Source: an uncultured Thermoplasmata archaeon
GTDB taxonomy: Archaea > Thermoplasmatota > Thermoplasmata > UBA10834
Direction: 5' to 3'
NCBI GenBank assembly: GCA_963719945.1
Contig: CAVRDX010000002.1
Location: forward strand, 32,001-96,000
Length of the DNA: 64,000 nucleotides
How positions within the stretch are numbered: the stretch's first letter is position 1; each line of letters opens with the position of its first letter. This document shows, piece after piece, positions 16,363 through 22,291 of the stretch. The notes beneath the pieces were generated by a model. It was given only the letters and a program-made list of their open reading frames with translations. It ran no database searches and was not told where the DNA came from. The translations under genes were made by a program, and so were the position numbers.

Positions 16363-17835
16363 TTGTTGTCAGTGAAAGGGATCAAGCTCAATCAGAACTC
16401 AAGACTGAAAGTCTTGACCGATGACCAGATCGATGCTATACACGACGCCACCCTGAAAATCCTTGAGAGGACAGGTATCAGGTACGACAGCGAAGATGCC
16501 AGGAAGAGGCTTTTGGATGCAGGCGCTGCGAACCATCCCACGAGGAAAGGAGTCATCACATTCCCGAGATCCATGGTCGAGGACGCCATTAGCAAGGTCA
16601 CTCATCGCAACATGTATCCTGCTCGAGACAAGAGATGGGACATCGAGTTCGATGGCGAGCACATGTTCCCGTACGCAGGCGGAGGAGACCCGAAGATAAT
16701 AGATCTGGGGACAGGCCAAGTGAGACACTCGACCTATAACGATATCGAGATGGCAGCCAAACTCGGCGACTCACTCGAGAACAACAACTTCGCATCCAGC
16801 CTGGTGATGGCGAATGATGTCCCGCCTGAGCTGCTGGTCCTGAAGACCGTCGAGGCAGCTATGAAGAACACGGGAAAGGCGGTCACTGCATATGCCCCCG
16901 ACAAGGAAACGGTCGATTACCTTGTGAAGATGTGGGCATGCGTATCTGGAGGAACCGAGGAGCTCCGGAAGAGACCTCTGTTCAGCCTCGGCGGGTCCCC
17001 GAGCAGCCCGCTCACATACTCGGAGCACACCTGCGATGTGTTGCTTCGAAGCGTCGAGCACGGTATCCCGTTCTCCGCCCTTCCCTGCCCTATCTGCGGG
17101 GAGACGGGACCTATGACTCTGGGCGGCGCATTGGCGCAGCAGAATGCTGAACAACTAGGTGGCATCATGCTCATGCAGACGGTGACCACGAGCCTGCCCA
17201 CATACTACTCCGGAAGGGTATGCGTCATGGATCCTCGTTCAGGAAGGGACCTTTGGGGGGTCCCTGAAGAAGCACTCTTGTCTGCGGCCATAGTACAAAT
17301 CGCTCGCAGGTACGGGATGGTGGCAGACACCAACGGTATGTCATCCGACATCACCAGATGGGACATGCAGATGGGGTTCGAACAGATGATGACCGGTCTG
17401 ATACCGGCCCTGGCAGGTGCGGACAGCATATCCGGCCTCGGCAGCGGGTGGGCGAGTGCCAGCAGTCTCGAGATGATGGTCATAAACAACGAGGTCTTCA
17501 ACGATATCGCGAGGATACTCAACGGCATCCGTATCGACGAAGGGAGCCTTGCGATAGACCTGATAGATAAGGTTGGAACCATGGGCAGCTTCCTGGCAGA
17601 ACCTCACACCATGGAGAGCATCCGCGATGGAGAAGTACGCATCTCGTCGCTCTGGGACAAACGGAGTTCAGATAAAGTCACCAAGGAAGGCTTCAAGCCG
17701 ATCCAGGAAACTGCAAGAGACGTTGTGCGGAGACGACTCGAGGACCACGAACCGGAGCCATTGGATAGGGATGTGGTGAACGGGATAGATCAAGTCATCA
17801 AAGAAGCTGCCAGAACATTTCTAGGGAGATCGTAG
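16363..17835 (+). CDS. mttB: Trimethylamine methyltransferase MttB superfamily, non-pyrrolysine member
   Basis: LTDDQIDAIHDATLKILERTGI, TGPMTLGGALAQQNAE.LGGI, GSFLAEPHT motifs; no in-frame amber codon. Confidence 0.88.
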   Translation: MLSVKGIKLNQNSRLKVLTDDQIDAIHDATLKILERTGIRYDSEDARKRLLDAGAANHPTRKGVITFPRSMVEDAISKVTHRNMYPARDKRWDIEFDGEHMFPYAGGGDPKIIDLGTGQVRHSTYNDIEMAAKLGDSLENNNFASSLVMANDVPPELLVLKTVEAAMKNTGKAVTAYAPDKETVDYLVKMWACVSGGTEELRKRPLFSLGGSPSSPLTYSEHTCDVLLRSVEHGIPFSALPCPICGETGPMTLGGALAQQNAEQLGGIMLMQTVTTSLPTYYSGRVCVMDPRSGRDLWGVPEEALLSAAIVQIARRYGMVADTNGMSSDITRWDMQMGFEQMMTGLIPALAGADSISGLGSGWASASSLEMMVINNEVFNDIARILNGIRIDEGSLAIDLIDKVGTMGSFLAEPHTMESIRDGEVRISSLWDKRSSDKVTKEGFKPIQETARDVVRRRLEDHEPEPLDRDVVNGIDQVIKEAARTFLGRS

Positions 17836-17981: not shown

Positions 17982-18350
17982 ATGAACAAGCTAGTGGGGG
18001 CTTTGGTGACATTCGCCGGGATATGCCTGGTGATCCTCGGCGCTATTTTCATCATAGCGTGGAGCGTCGAGAATGCGATCGCTGGAGGCATGATGGTACT
18101 GATAGGCGTGGGCCTCATGTACTACATGTACAGGGTCGAGAAGATCGAGGCCGCAAAACCTCAACTCGTGTCTCAGACATTCAATGTCAAGATGTCTGGT
18201 TCAGGCGAGATGGCCCCGAAGGACATGATATGCAAATCATGTGGCGCGCCGATCACCGAGAAGAACTTGAAGGTCATCCAGGGCGGACTCATGGCCACAT
18301 GCCCGTACTGTGGCGCCGTGTTCGCGCTGCAGGAAGCTCCGAAGTGGTGA
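17982..18350 (+). CDS. Small 2-TM membrane protein with C-terminal zinc ribbon
   Basis: Two TM helices then CKSCGA...CPYCG, ending EAPKW; TTATAA at 17940-17945 upstream. Alternative GTG start at 17946. Confidence 0.8.
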   Translation: MNKLVGALVTFAGICLVILGAIFIIAWSVENAIAGGMMVLIGVGLMYYMYRVEKIEAAKPQLVSQTFNVKMSGSGEMAPKDMICKSCGAPITEKNLKVIQGGLMATCPYCGAVFALQEAPKW

Positions 18351-18366
18351 TATCATCATATCTACC

Positions 18367-20034
18367 ATGATCCGTCCCGCACTGATGTCATGTTCCATCG
18401 TCATGATACTCGTCCTTGCCATAGGCATAAGCGCTTGTCCGTTCTCCAATTCGGCCGATGCAGCGGCGACATACAGCTTCAGTGTCGAGTATGAGCGCTT
18501 GGATGTCTTCGTGCTCAAGGACGGGAGTATCGACATAGACTACTCATTCGGAATGACGAACTTCGGATATCTTGATGGAGTCGACATAGGCCTGCCCAAC
18601 AAGTACTATGACCTAGACTCGGCCGAAGCCACGATCATTGTGAACGATCAGGAGTACGCTCCCGCTCTGATACACAAATCACCTTACGTGGAAATCGGAG
18701 TGGCCGTCGAGTTCACGAGCACAGTGATGGCGTTGATCGACACATATGGCACATCATTCCAGCTGGATTTCCATATCAACAACCCGCATATGGTGTACGA
18801 GAACGAGCTCGTGGAAGGCACTGTCGGCATAGCAATGAGACCGACCTGGTTCGGCGACGCGTATCAGGTGGGTCCGACCGAGGAGCTCACTGCGAGGGTG
18901 TTCTTCCCCGATGGATTCGTGAACGTCACCGATGCCGTCTACCTCGAAGGGCAACCATGGAACGAGATAGGGATCGACCCCGGGACAGGGCTATTGGTCG
19001 CCACATGGACCGCGTCGAATGCCTATCCCGCGGGCATCGCGTCTGGCGAATTCGATTTCGGCGCGGGGTTCCCTGCAGAGTTCGTGGACAGTTATGTGCG
19101 CCATACGGTCTGGAACTCGATCGCGGACTTCTTCGCCTCACTCTTGGAACTGGTCTGCCTCTGCATACCCATCATAGCCCTTGGGGGATTCATATTCCTC
19201 ATATACATGATTGACAGGGCCAGCAAGGCCGCGAAGAGGAAGGATTACTTCAATCCGGCCATGGGAGTCGTCGGCTCGGGCCCACGGAGGGACCTCACCG
19301 CAGTAGAAGCTGCAATCGTACTCGAGAGACCTCTCGAGATGGTGGCGACCATGATACTCTTCGGATTGGTGAAGAAGGGTATGGTGAGGATAGACTCGGA
19401 TCAGAGACCGATGAAGCTGACGAAACTAGGAGCCGAGGGGGAACACACCTACGAGACCGACTACCTCAGGGGGATCGGTCCCGATGGTCAGCTGGATCGC
19501 ACACAGCTGGAGGTGACCCTTGTCGACCTGATAAAGAGGACCGAGACGAAGCTCGATGGCTTCAACTATAGACACACCAAGAATTACTATCAGGAGATAT
19601 GCTCCGCCGCGTGGAAACAGGTCAAGGATGCTGGAACCCCCGAGGAGTTCGCATCGGTCCTTTCCGACAAGCACGAGTGGATGATGCTCGACAATCACTA
19701 CGAGACGCAGATGCGACACTATTTCTTCGCCATGCCATACGTCTACGTGCCCATGACGCACTCCGTTTACGAACACACTATGCCGACAGCACAAGTGTCT
19801 CCCCAGCAGCTTGCATCCAACTACGCTACGAGCGTCAAGAACGCGAGCAACAACGTTGTCTCGAATTTCAAGTCTCTGGCATATGATATAGCTGGAAAGA
19901 CGAACCCCGTGACGACGTCCACGGGTTCGGGTTCTGGTTCGTACCTCAAAGGTGGCGGCGGATTCGGTGGATTCGGAGGAGGATGCGCGTGTGCATGTGC
20001 ATGCGCATGTGCCTGCGCTGGGGGTGGAAGATGA
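18367..20034 (+). CDS. DUF2207-like single-pass membrane protein with C-terminal Gly-rich/(Cys-Ala)6 tail; putative radical SAM substrate
   Basis: Signal peptide; ERLDVFVLKDGSIDIDYSF N-domain; TM followed by KAAKRK; ATMILFGLVKKG.V.I motif; ends GGGGFGGFGGGCACACACACACAGGGR. Confidence 0.8.
   Translation: MIRPALMSCSIVMILVLAIGISACPFSNSADAAATYSFSVEYERLDVFVLKDGSIDIDYSFGMTNFGYLDGVDIGLPNKYYDLDSAEATIIVNDQEYAPALIHKSPYVEIGVAVEFTSTVMALIDTYGTSFQLDFHINNPHMVYENELVEGTVGIAMRPTWFGDAYQVGPTEELTARVFFPDGFVNVTDAVYLEGQPWNEIGIDPGTGLLVATWTASNAYPAGIASGEFDFGAGFPAEFVDSYVRHTVWNSIADFFASLLELVCLCIPIIALGGFIFLIYMIDRASKAAKRKDYFNPAMGVVGSGPRRDLTAVEAAIVLERPLEMVATMILFGLVKKGMVRIDSDQRPMKLTKLGAEGEHTYETDYLRGIGPDGQLDRTQLEVTLVDLIKRTETKLDGFNYRHTKNYYQEICSAAWKQVKDAGTPEEFASVLSDKHEWMMLDNHYETQMRHYFFAMPYVYVPMTHSVYEHTMPTAQVSPQQLASNYATSVKNASNNVVSNFKSLAYDIAGKTNPVTTSTGSGSGSYLKGGGGFGGFGGGCACACACACACAGGGR
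19984..20019 (+). repeat. Coding (Cys-Ala)x6 dipeptide repeat
   Basis: TGC GCG TGT GCA TGT GCA TGC GCA TGT GCC TGC GCT: six CA units with varied synonymous codons. Confidence 0.9.
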
Positions 20035-21383
20035 TGCCATTCAGACTCCTTGCCTATTCACCTGAAGAACTAGGCCTCAAGCCCGGCACGTACAAGTACG
20101 ACGGACCTGGCGACCTCGCTCGTCACCGATTCCATATCAGGGTGGACAGTCAGACGAAGGGCGTGCTGATGGTGGACGCGTCGAAGCTGATCTTCCTGAA
20201 CGGTACTGCTCTCGACTACGTGAGATGCATACTCGAGGGGAAGGACGCGGACCGAACATATGCCTACATGAAACGTAGATACAAGGGTCTCAAGAAGGCC
20301 GCCGCCAGGGAAGACTATAGGTCCACCAGGGAGAGGCTTACTCGATTCGTCAAGGGCGAAGAGTCAGTCATGGACGTCATGGGACCCAACGCACCCGCAA
20401 TCGGTGCGGATGAGATGCCATCGCCATACAGGATGGACCTTGCGCTCACATACCGATGCCAGAACGACTGCGGACACTGCTACAACGCAACCAAGGAGAA
20501 GAAGGAGCTTTCGGTGAAGGAGTGGATCACCATCATAGACAAGCTCTGGGACGCAGGCATACCGCACATAGTATTCACCGGGGGAGAGCCGACCCTGTAC
20601 GACGGCCTAGATGAGCTGATAGCTCATTCTGAACTCCACGGACAGATCACAGGACTCATCTCGAACGGCCGGAGCCTCGGAAAGCCGGGCTACCTGAGTT
20701 CTCTCGTGTCCAAGGGGTTGGACCATGTCCAGATCACGGTGCTCTCGCACGAGCGAGAGACACACGATCGATTGGCAGGTGCCAAGGGCGCGTGGCAGGA
20801 GACGATCGCGGGATTGAAGGCTGCGATCGCCGAGGACATGTATGTCAGCACCAACACGACAATCATGAGATCCAATTACGCGCACGTCAAGGAGACCATG
20901 AGGTTCCTCGTCGGCCTCGGTGTGAAGAATATCGCGTTCAACAGCATCATACGGTCCGGAAAGGGCGTGCAGGCAGAAGGCGTGACATATCAAGAATTAT
21001 CATCGCTTCTGGAGGAACTCAGAGGTATAGCCTCTGAGACGGGGACGAAACTGATATGGTATTCTCCCACACCGTACTGCGAACTCAATCCGGTGAACAT
21101 GGGCCTGGGCATCAAGCAATGCACCGCCTGTTCACTGAACATGGCGGTCGAGCCCGACGGGACTGTGCTACCATGCCAGAGCTATTACGAACCTCTCGGG
21201 GACATGCTCAAGGATGATTGGTCCACCATATGGGGACATCCGCAATGCGAGCGCATCAGGAAGAGGGAGTATGTCGACGAGAAGTGCGGGAAGTGCGAGA
21301 TGCTTCAGCTGTGCGGAGGCGGATGCCCGCTTTCTGCGGCTCACGGAGACTATGTGTGCCAGGACAGATACTCATCTATGTGA
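20031..21383 (+). CDS. Radical SAM/SPASM peptide-maturase-like enzyme with N-terminal PqqD/RRE-like domain
   Basis: CQNDCGHC, FTGGEP, SPASM motifs C..C...PDG.V.PC and CGKCEMLQLCGGGC (Cx2Cx5Cx3C); N-terminal strands then IFLNGTA and helices resembling an RRE; ATGA overlap with the upstream stop. Confidence 0.88.
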   Translation: MMPFRLLAYSPEELGLKPGTYKYDGPGDLARHRFHIRVDSQTKGVLMVDASKLIFLNGTALDYVRCILEGKDADRTYAYMKRRYKGLKKAAAREDYRSTRERLTRFVKGEESVMDVMGPNAPAIGADEMPSPYRMDLALTYRCQNDCGHCYNATKEKKELSVKEWITIIDKLWDAGIPHIVFTGGEPTLYDGLDELIAHSELHGQITGLISNGRSLGKPGYLSSLVSKGLDHVQITVLSHERETHDRLAGAKGAWQETIAGLKAAIAEDMYVSTNTTIMRSNYAHVKETMRFLVGLGVKNIAFNSIIRSGKGVQAEGVTYQELSSLLEELRGIASETGTKLIWYSPTPYCELNPVNMGLGIKQCTACSLNMAVEPDGTVLPCQSYYEPLGDMLKDDWSTIWGHPQCERIRKREYVDEKCGKCEMLQLCGGGCPLSAAHGDYVCQDRYSSM

Positions 21384-22154
21384 GTCGGGTTTCTTGGCGA
21401 ACGCATGGAACACGGGGTTGAACTGGAACAAAGAGCCATCTTTTAGCGCGCGTTCCCAGATGGGCCGCAGCTCTGCAAGCCGTTCCTTGCCCTCAACGTT
21501 CTGAGCAGTCAGTTCCAGGTACCTCCATTCGGCCTCTGACTCTGCCCTCAGCTTGTCGATCCCCCATACACCTGGATGTACTCCGACCTCTGCTTCGAGG
21601 TGGCACGCTTCGAAGATGGCCCTCAACTTCCGACCGATCAGAGGATCGCCTCCTTCGGCCCTTATGCCGTCTTCAGCTATCCTGCCAAGTGGGGAGAGCT
21701 CCTGAGGGAAGTCGATCCGAGCGCCAAGGTCCGGCTCCGCAAGACACACGACCCAATGCCTGGAAATGCGAACCATCTCCGACAGAACCCTCACGGGATC
21801 GTCGACCCACAGCATAACGAAAGAGCAATAGGCCATATCGAAGGAGTCATCCTTGAAAGGCAGCGAGTGCGCATCCCCTTCTCTCACCTCTAGACCCCTG
21901 CGTCTGCCCTCGGCAACGGCTGCTGGGTCGATGTCTATTCCCTGCACATCGAACATCGGAGCTAGCAATTCCATTACGAATCCTGGCCCGCATCCGACAT
22001 CCAGAGCGGTCGGTCGCCTTTGCCCATTCCAATTGCTCAGCACCCGCTGCTCAAGTAGCCAGGTCCATGAATCCCTGAGCCAGAGTGATTGCCTCGAGAG
22101 CTGTCTATCCATATCCTTCGCAGACCAGGGCATCGAACATGAAGAGGCGTCCAT
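21372..22154 (-). CDS. Class I SAM-dependent methyltransferase
   Basis: ALDVGCGPG, GIDID, GDAHSLPFKDDSFD; start uncertain (22133, 22154 or 22259). Confidence 0.88.
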   Translation of the reverse strand: MDASSCSMPWSAKDMDRQLSRQSLWLRDSWTWLLEQRVLSNWNGQRRPTALDVGCGPGFVMELLAPMFDVQGIDIDPAAVAEGRRRGLEVREGDAHSLPFKDDSFDMAYCSFVMLWVDDPVRVLSEMVRISRHWVVCLAEPDLGARIDFPQELSPLGRIAEDGIRAEGGDPLIGRKLRAIFEACHLEAEVGVHPGVWGIDKLRAESEAEWRYLELTAQNVEGKERLAELRPIWERALKDGSLFQFNPVFHAFAKKPDSHR

Positions 22155-22291
22155 GAGAGAAATCCTTTGTGGCAATCCTGGCCTATCGAACCGGTCCATC
22201 TTATGATGGGAGACATCCATCTTGGTAGATGCAGAAGACCTGTCCGTGACAAAATCCATAACGATGGATAGGCATGCGAAAGCTGAGAGGA

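Follow-up and report, generated by a model that had tools for sequence, protein, structure and literature searches.

A membrane protein with a (Cys-Ala)6-Gly-Gly-Gly-Arg tail is encoded in a 64,000-nucleotide stretch of DNA (hereafter the window) from an uncultured Thermoplasmata archaeon (assembly GCA_963719945.1, contig CAVRDX010000002.1, positions 32,001 to 96,000). The repeat is held by selection at the protein level. The tail appears to be a built-in "core" substrate, carried by the whole protein, of the translationally coupled enzyme encoded downstream. This enzyme is a radical S-adenosylmethionine (SAM)/SPASM protein with a recognition element (RRE) of the type known from RiPPs, peptides that the ribosome makes and that are modified after translation. 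In cis modification of the tail by this enzyme, with the protein left intact and thioether links as the most likely product, is considered probable, with appreciable room for doubt. This reading is preferred because the tail is invariant, the two genes are linked and co-occur, the enzyme has the architecture of an RRE-bearing maturase, and both partners are predicted on the same side of the membrane.

The open reading frame of the tail protein (P0001), at 18310..20034 on the + strand, gives 574 amino acids from a GTG at 18310 and 555 from an ATG at 18367. Orthologues are about 550 amino acids long, their N-termini consisting of a short basic stretch and then a hydrophobic helix, and for this reason the ATG at 18367 is likely the start. 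At the C-terminus, the protein reads ...TNPVTTSTGSGSGSYLK-GGGGFGGFGGG-CACACACACACA-GGGR*, with the lysine-terminated stretch SYLK directly before the Gly spacer. The whole motif sits on a single tryptic peptide, which makes the system easy to test. The elements are the following:

18367..20034, + strand: CA-tail membrane protein; AlphaFold2 model with a mean pLDDT (score predicted for the local distance difference test) of 81.7
19951..19983, + strand: Gly-rich spacer GGGGFGGFGGG, residues 548-558; sequence and length vary across the family
19984..20019, + strand: (Cys-Ala)6 block, residues 559-570; codons TGC GCG TGT GCA TGT GCA TGC GCA TGT GCC TGC GCT
20020..20031, + strand: GGGR, then the stop codon TGA at 20032..20034; G571, G572, G573 and R574 are invariant in a 36-sequence alignment of the family

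The tail and its codons had been listed in an earlier note on this DNA, made from the letters alone, and they were found at 19984..20019 exactly as listed. A degenerate DNA pattern for (Cys-Ala)4 has a single site in the 1.78-Mb genome (three overlapping matches), and the reversed pattern, taken as a control, has none.

A homologue search of 5.8 billion proteins returned 151 homologues. Among the 119 listed homologues in which the protein end was counted, the window's own near-copy being left out, 107 terminate in (CA)n[G(CA)3]GGGR. Orthologues without the Cys tail, or with tails of random composition, were looked for as evidence against selection and not found; the 12 exceptions consist of ten fragments at contig ends and two sequences that look frameshifted in or ahead of the tail. 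An exhaustive profile search of 50%-identity clusters yielded 1236 clusters at E<=0.001 and 424 at E<=1e-30. A CxCx..GG(G/A)R end is present in 116 of 139 further cluster representatives, and seven more have variant CxCxCx ends. In the 36-sequence alignment, the archaeal and bacterial branches of the protein share about 30% identity overall, and the invariant C565-A-C-A-C-A-G-G-G-R574 (CACACAGGGR) is its most conserved stretch.

The tail occurs in 92 distinct DNA versions, which translate into no more than six peptide variants and among which every codon for Cys (two), Ala (four), Gly (four), and Arg (six) is represented. Selection on the protein follows from the fact that the peptide is kept in the homologues while its synonymous codons vary fully, which bears out the view of the earlier note that the repeat is not a slipped microsatellite. 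The tail takes one main form in archaea, (CA)5-6-GGGR, with six units in this genus, and another in bacteria, (CA)4-G-(CA)3-GGGR. In wider relatives Val sometimes takes the place of Ala, and S, VS, or DS separates the blocks. Since Ala is almost never replaced, it probably does more than space the Cys residues and may participate as an acceptor or for steric reasons. The (CA)n block also behaves as the core-like region proposed in the earlier note, lying behind a variable Gly/Ser-rich spacer.

A different origin of the repeat, as a DNA-level feature without protein meaning (slipped microsatellite, assembly artefact, or translational-coupling signal), would draw on the compact layout of the gene end. 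There, GGGGGTGGAAGATGA holds the GGGR codons and the TGA together with a GGTGGA that resembles a Shine-Dalgarno sequence, and the next gene opens in it with an ATG that forms an ATGA overlap. However, the 92 DNA versions yield one set of peptide types with all synonymous codons used, and in bacterial loci the next gene often starts only after a gap of tens to hundreds of bases, with the tail unchanged. This explanation is regarded as refuted, and the chance left to it is negligible. As to the junction itself, the GGGR codons of the window copy (GGG GGT GGA AGA) contain GGTGGA 5 nt ahead of the enzyme ATG (window 20020-20036). The tail gene of Methanomassiliicoccales loci nearly always ends in AGA/CGN TGA.

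A database protein, P0005, is identical to the window protein in 441 of 442 residues and lies on a 31.8-kb contig. It diverges after ...HYETQ (from residue 467 of P0001, window ~19710-19760) and stops 14 residues later. The pattern fits a 1-nt deletion, with loss of the C-terminal 107 residues including the tail. Either a sequencing error or a natural allele without the tail may account for P0005.

The ATG of the adjacent enzyme gene overlaps the stop codon of the tail gene (AGATGATG). Its parts are the following:

20031..21383, + strand: RRE-radical SAM-SPASM enzyme, 450 amino acids (PF04055, 1e-21; PF13186, 1.5e-8)
20085..20351, + strand: RRE-like (PqqD-like) domain of the enzyme, residues 19-107, pLDDT 83-94
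20457..20480, + strand: CxxxCxxC radical SAM motif (C143, C147, C150), invariant in 32 aligned sequences
21078..21326, + strand: SPASM region with seven conserved Cys; C364, C382, C419, C422, C428, and C432 are invariant and C350 is conserved in at least 90%

The model of the enzyme has a pLDDT of 83.2 and a predicted template modelling score of 0.84. The RRE-like domain is built of strands 19-24, 33-40, 43-48, and 52-57, followed by helices 58-68, 73-83, and 89-107. By sequence profile, the closest solved structure is the sactisynthase SkfB (6EFN), matched at E 2.7e-29 over SkfB residues 19-371. The RRE of SkfB comprises residues 12-105 (PMC6231123). Since the profile match covers this RRE and the model shows the strands and helices just given, the window enzyme is assigned an N-terminal RRE domain, of the PqqD-like winged helix-turn-helix (wHTH) kind. 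The structural matches are headed by SuiB (Z 26.0), SkfB (24.9), PqqE (24.0), CteB (23.6), and anSME (23.4); the SuiB alignment extends over 364 residues from model residue 21, with a root-mean-square deviation of 4.0. The CxxxCxxC motif is kept in 75 of 76 orthologues. Judged by sequence and model, the enzyme carries the architecture of the Cys-acting RiPP maturases, that is, an RRE, CxxxCxxC, and a SPASM region with seven Cys.

The enzyme falls below every curated cut-off of NCBIfam. Its best score is 118 bits against 381 for PqqE, and the others are 88 against 300 for SkfB, 74 against 625 for StsB, 64 against 400 for ACGX, 59 against 350 for SbtM, and 56 against 265 for MftC; NirJ2 and AhbD likewise remain under their cut-offs. 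TIGR04463, the NCBIfam entry for CrpA/CrpC, is absent from its 25 best NCBIfam matches.

The two genes travel together. The radical SAM/SPASM gene is immediately downstream of the tail gene in 72 of the 81 loci with enough flank, a count made up of 70 loci scored by script and two (L005, L012) in which merged frames had hidden an enzyme visible on inspection. Among 41 related genomes, the tail protein is found in 12 and the enzyme (E<=1e-60) in 11 of the same 12; the twelfth (G007) has a partial enzyme copy at a contig end. The enzyme was found in none of the 29 related genomes without the tail.

Bacterial cassettes add a second radical SAM-like gene, a paralogue of the enzyme that is 35% identical to it (e.g., L015:11096-12265). 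It is present in 45 bacterial loci (also L030, L042, L060, and L070) and was not seen in the archaeal loci. In 44 of the 45 the product has no CxxxCxxC; the median number of Cys is two, and the PqqD-like N-terminus is kept. From its sequence, the paralogue is probably a catalytically dead, RRE-bearing subunit for recognition or scaffolding. In one protein, P0241 (948 amino acids, GCA_964471355.1, L112:486-3332), a dead-paralogue/RRE region is fused to the N-terminus of a complete tail protein; residues 22-211 match the dead paralogue at E 1e-7. The order of genes at this locus is the 3′ end of an active radical SAM/SPASM gene with legible SPASM motifs, P0241, and a methyltransferase. In this single case, the RRE-bearing component would be physically joined to the tail protein, on the side predicted to be cytoplasmic.

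When the enzyme was modelled in complex with residues 495-574 of the tail protein, the score was 0.38 against 0.00 for the best control. Of 80 solved complexes, 58 attain the mark applied, as do 2 of 110 mismatched pairs; when scores of 0.60 or below are counted, the figures are only 7 of the 80 solved complexes and both mismatches. The runs agree in at least 34% of contacts, with a partner pLDDT of at least 34. For a guess that was not likely beforehand, so weak a pass would be wrong in more cases than right.

Several observations weigh against modification of the tail by the adjacent enzyme. Three loci have the tail and no radical SAM gene in the flanks, and at six more the downstream gene was scored as the paralogue. 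Of these, L043, L049, L056, and L059 have only the dead paralogue beside the tail, and the genes scored as paralogues at L026 (fragmented) and L035 keep CxxxCxxC. In four of five exception genomes, an orthologue of the enzyme (44-49% identity) is found elsewhere in the genome, but the fifth (G045) showed the paralogue only. The 41 genomes are kin, and their counts are not independent, so that the co-occurrence table is a description and not a statistical test. The Pfam model PqqD (PF05402) does not match the window enzyme and matches a bacterial orthologue only weakly. The complex prediction is weak, with the tail modelled as disordered. The frameshift of P0005, in a near-identical strain, removes the tail, which would be dispensable there if the change is real. 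Finally, Cys-X-Cys is a classic metal-binding pattern and could function unmodified.

The same linkage and co-occurrence would be expected if the tail were a scaffold on which the radical SAM/SPASM enzyme and a methyl donor assemble a cofactor or complex cluster, the chemistry taking place on a Cys-held ligand. Some radical SAM enzymes, such as NifB, do assemble clusters on Cys ligands. Structures of NifB are among the structural matches of the enzyme (Z ~17), and a methyltransferase is conserved in the cassette. Nevertheless, the closest matches in sequence and structure are RRE-bearing peptide maturases and not enzymes of cofactor assembly, and no other genes of cofactor biosynthesis are conserved in the cassette. 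A scaffold of this kind is therefore considered improbable.

The tail protein is composed of the following parts ahead of the spacer:

18370..18435, + strand: N-terminal hydrophobic helix (signal peptide or first transmembrane helix), residues 21-42; hydropathy peak at 25-43
18478..19074, + strand: extracytoplasmic beta-sandwich, residues 57-255; strands with pLDDT >90
19150..19218, + strand: transmembrane helix, residues ~281-303 (model and hydropathy), then the K/R-rich DRASKAAKRK
19246..19557, + strand: cytoplasmic juxtamembrane wHTH-like domain, residues 313-416, with the motif G.G.RR.LTAVEAA..LE.P
19801..19908, + strand: two conserved helices ending in T-N-P, residues 498-533; helices 498-515 and 520-531 in the model

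In 36 family members, K+R averages 4.25 in the flank C-terminal to the transmembrane helix and 0.64 in the N-terminal one, with the excess on the C-terminal side in 35 of the 36. Because of this enrichment, the C-terminal half and the tail are predicted to be cytoplasmic; in that position the tail would be within reach of a cytoplasmic Fe-S enzyme. In the model, a helical domain follows the wHTH-like unit, and residues 537-574 are disordered (pLDDT <50). In the 36-sequence alignment, L329, T330, V332, E333, and A334 of the wHTH-like domain are invariant, as is P533, and T531 is kept in at least 90%. The earlier note had proposed to look upstream of the tail for a leader-like motif such as TNP, and T[NHR]P was indeed found 13-51 residues ahead of the tail in 102 of the 107 homologues. 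The two helices and TNP (residues 498-533) are a candidate leader-like recognition segment.

A leader, a spacer, and a core in this order could also belong to a true RiPP, in which cleavage at a site such as Gly-Gly would free the core as a small Cys-Ala peptide to be released or exported. The window copy has GGG directly ahead of the first Cys, and a double-glycine cleavage site had been proposed there. This proposal does not hold across the family, since only 42 of 107 homologues have GG directly ahead of the first Cys, and the others have HS, SS, YS, GH, or RS. No peptidase, exporter, or other transporter is found among the called neighbours of the two loci read, and the four conserved cassette families include no such protein. 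In addition, a membrane protein of about 550 amino acids with conserved ecto- and cytoplasmic domains would be implausibly large as a leader, and the tail is predicted on the cytoplasmic face. Release of a peptide is held to be very improbable, more so than the scaffold discussed above.

With the tail taken as a substrate modified in place, a sequence of events can be proposed. The tail protein would be inserted in the membrane with its beta-sandwich outside and with the TIGR04222-like domain, the helical domain, and the disordered tail in the cytoplasm. The RRE of the enzyme would then dock on the conserved helices and the TNP segment. SAM-derived radical chemistry would take place on the alternating Cys, a substrate Cys being ligated to the open Fe of auxiliary cluster I. 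The favored products would be thioethers between Cys sulfur and C-alpha or C-beta of adjacent Ala or Gly, in a ladder resembling that of StsA; they are favored because the nearest relatives of the enzyme are thioether synthases. Oxidative conversion to thiooxazoles, as by SbtM, would be a second option. The conserved methyltransferase would contribute a further methyl group, and the invariant C-terminal carboxylate may be speculated to be its target, as the nearest families of the methyltransferase include carboxyl O-methyltransferases such as BioC. The product would stay on the membrane protein as a rigid sulfur-rich element, possibly metal-binding or redox-active, with the Zn-ribbon membrane protein encoded upstream as a likely partner.

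Alternating Cys residues in an extended chain place their thiols on one face, and CxC motifs occur in metallothioneins. The tail may then serve unmodified as a cytoplasmic, membrane-tethered metal or Fe-S site, with the radical SAM/SPASM enzyme and the methyltransferase acting elsewhere, or with the tail handing over clusters or metal. The common face of the thiols, the disorder of the tail in the model, the Zn-ribbon nature of the upstream partner, and the suspicion that proteins of the CrpA type also bind metal are all in keeping with such a site. On the other hand, the X position of metal-binding CxC motifs is not known to be restricted, and here Ala is near-invariant, as is the GGGR terminus. 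The RRE maturase architecture, the strict co-occurrence, and the fusion to the dead paralogue would also be left unexplained. An unmodified site is thus rated unlikely, even if it is the strongest competitor of enzymatic modification.

Modification by the enzyme can be compared with systems already described. In Streptomyces sparsogenes, StsB links CxCxC to GxGxG of StsA by sactionines, giving a hairpin ladder (PMC10288494). The ladder-like thioethers imagined in the earlier note have in StsA a published precedent. StsA/StsB(/StsC) and BlaA/BlaB (PMC10288494) share with the window system the alternating-Cys core, the radical SAM/SPASM partner, and the RRE, and the Cys block of the window protein likewise has a Gly-rich segment close by. 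Unlike StsA, which is a short soluble precursor with a separate RRE protein, the core here would be the tail of a membrane protein of about 555 amino acids, with Ala as X. The window enzyme is also far from the cut-off of the StsB model.

In Methanococcus voltae, CrpC installs thioethers (ranthionine) on CrpA, a 28.8-kDa Cys-repeat protein (PMC13692751, 2026). CrpA/CrpC (TIGR04463) resembles the window pair in that an archaeal RRE-bearing radical SAM/SPASM enzyme is encoded beside a protein with C-terminal Cys repeats rather than a small peptide. However, CrpA is soluble and has ten 17-residue repeats with C-x-x-Q/D motifs, whereas a single short (CA)n block on an integral membrane protein is found here, in a cassette to which a methyltransferase and a Zn-ribbon protein also belong.

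TIGR04222 membrane proteins with Cys-bearing low-complexity tails are the proposed substrates of adjacent oxidative enzymes that depend on multinuclear non-heme iron (MNIO, DUF692) (PMC12452194). The membrane protein, the Cys-bearing low-complexity tail, the adjacent candidate Cys-modifying enzyme, and the proposed use of a whole protein as substrate are common to that proposal and to the window system. The partner differs, being an oxygen-independent radical SAM enzyme in anaerobic hosts and not an O2-dependent MNIO. The Cys oxidation proposed for MNIO enzymes is the kind of reaction to which a thiooxazole product would correspond, but it requires oxygen, which these anaerobes lack. In addition, the tail is here a strict (CA)n-GGGR predicted to be cytoplasmic, while TIGR04222 tails are predicted to be periplasmic. 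DUF692 is absent among the called neighbours at the two loci read, no genome-wide search for MNIO having been made.

SkfB (6EFN), SuiB (5V1T), and CteB (5WHY) have the same three-domain architecture, CxxxCxxC, and auxiliary-cluster Cys as the window enzyme, with which they share 16-22% identity. Their substrates, unlike the tail protein, are precursors of 40 to 60 amino acids, which undergo cleavage and export afterwards. The only conserved Cys-bearing neighbour of the window enzyme is the membrane protein of about 555 amino acids, and no short leader-core precursor was seen, no dedicated search for small open reading frames having been made. SbtM (TIGR04082) converts Gly-Cys to thio(seleno)oxazole (PMC9204691). 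Its model scores the window enzyme far below the cut-off, as given above, and the substrates are unrelated.

The novelty of the system would reside in an RRE-bearing radical SAM/SPASM maturation directed at the own tail of a membrane protein, for which StsA/StsB, CrpA/CrpC, and the TIGR04222/MNIO proposal appear to be the closest published cases. A literature search found no published description of the (CA)n-GGGR tail or of the cassette. The radical SAM/SPASM maturases described so far belong for the most part to small exported peptides, and few act on whole proteins, as with QhpC and CrpA (2026); QhpD, a radical SAM/SPASM enzyme, makes thioethers inside the whole protein subunit QhpC. If the tail is a substrate, it would extend RiPP-like chemistry to another class of substrates and probably to another cross-link pattern as well. 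It would provide a testable rationale for orphan membrane proteins with low-complexity tails (TIGR04222-like, perhaps DUF2207-like) and would point to a function in metal or redox chemistry at the membrane of methanogenic Methanomassiliicoccales and of Anaerolineae. A more specific proposal is that the cassette builds a novel membrane-tethered structure, either a poly-thioether ladder or a thiooxazole string, as the O2-independent counterpart of the MNIO/TIGR04222 and bufferin systems. The radical SAM/SPASM enzyme, with the dead paralogue as its helper in bacteria, and the methyltransferase would build it, and it would serve on the cytoplasmic face as a metal-binding or redox element. This is advanced tentatively and is rather more doubtful than modification of the tail as such; if true, the tail would be the first RiPP-type core borne by a membrane protein.

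The tail gene and the enzyme gene belong to a four-gene module that recurs in hundreds of species of anaerobic archaea and bacteria (at least 307 genomes, each of a different species, and the 1236 sequence clusters mentioned above). These relatives, at least 307, come from a scan of one genome per species and are mainly from Methanomassiliicoccales/Thermoplasmatota and Anaerolineae. Further carriers are Zixibacteria, Cloacimonadota, Acidobacteriota, Edwardsbacteria, a delta-proteobacterial metagenome-assembled genome, Herpetosiphon, and the cultured Leptolinea sp. HRD-7 (AP024710, locus L070). The same gene order is found on two long contigs, one archaeal and one from Chloroflexia. The two remaining genes of the module are the following:

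17982..18350, + strand: small Zn-ribbon membrane protein, 122 amino acids, ATG at 17982; first gene of the cassette
21372..22259, - strand: class I SAM-dependent methyltransferase (PF08241, 1e-19), convergent with the enzyme gene

The Zn-ribbon protein has two transmembrane helices and a cytoplasmic CxxC...CPYC zinc ribbon, with weak matches to Zn-ribbon families of Pfam. Its gene is directly upstream of the tail gene in 82 of 85 loci, and the archaeal and bacterial proteins share 33% identity (E 2e-16). The C-terminus, ...CPYC(G/H/N).......E(E/A)PKW, is invariant from archaea to bacteria and is the second conserved terminal motif of the cassette. The methyltransferase probably starts at a later ATG, judging by orthologues of about 250 amino acids. 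The gene lies within 6.5 kb downstream in 45 of 59 loci, and in archaeal loci the same gene follows the enzyme. Archaeal and bacterial cassette methyltransferases are 31% identical over 240 amino acids (E 7e-37) and are orthologous.

The family of the tail protein is only remotely connected to known ones. Pfam does not match the whole protein, its parts, or 36 relatives. The only recurring family is TIGR04222 of NCBIfam, which matches 10 of the 36 members at E<=0.01 (best E 9.7e-8); for P0001, the score is 17.9 bits (E 0.0018, residues 313-416), below the curated cut-off of 43 bits. The match spans the juxtamembrane segment with the invariant LTAVEAA. These weak matches suggest that the tail protein is a remote relative of TIGR04222 and not a member. 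The beta-sandwich is a generic fold, with Foldseek matches to the N-domain of M1 aminopeptidases/LTA4H and to ribophorin I. For the model of the tail protein, ESM Atlas and Foldseek return generic beta-sandwiches and unnamed clusters, and two Atlas neighbours carry DUF2207 (template modelling score ~0.35).

The tail protein had been called DUF2207-type, with the remark that such proteins end in Gly-rich tails. Membership in DUF2207 (PF09972) was rejected, as none of the 36 members match it in Pfam and a six-frame search of the genome gave no match. Similarity at the profile level was likewise lacking when the family alignment was compared by hhalign with one DUF2207 protein, from the related Thermoplasmata genome G035 (probability 1.4%, 30 columns). 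The two architectures do share an N-terminal hydrophobic segment, an extracytoplasmic beta-rich domain, a transmembrane helix, and a Gly-rich C-terminal tail ending in Arg, so that "DUF2207-type" describes at most an architectural likeness. The remark on Gly-rich tails is correct for this one example. The G035 protein (L101:364-2106, - strand) ends in ...GGVSSSGSSAGGVSGGFGGGGAGAR (...GGFGGGGAGAR), which is Gly-rich with a terminal Arg and has no Cys.

A further radical SAM protein of the window, P0003 (15347..16315, YydG-like), was considered as an epimerase of the tail and rejected: it has no counterpart in any related locus and is unrelated to the second radical SAM-like gene of bacteria. 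Its best NCBIfam match is the YydG peptide epimerase, with 56 bits against a cut-off of 300. Beside it, window 16363-17835 holds an MttB-family methyltransferase gene without an in-frame stop. Pfam gives no match in the N-terminal extensions of the longer members of the tail-protein family. In five of these proteins (P0125, P0126, P0130, P0131, and P0135; 766-838 amino acids), a tandem second beta-sandwich ectodomain is recognized by eye, and the tail is unchanged.

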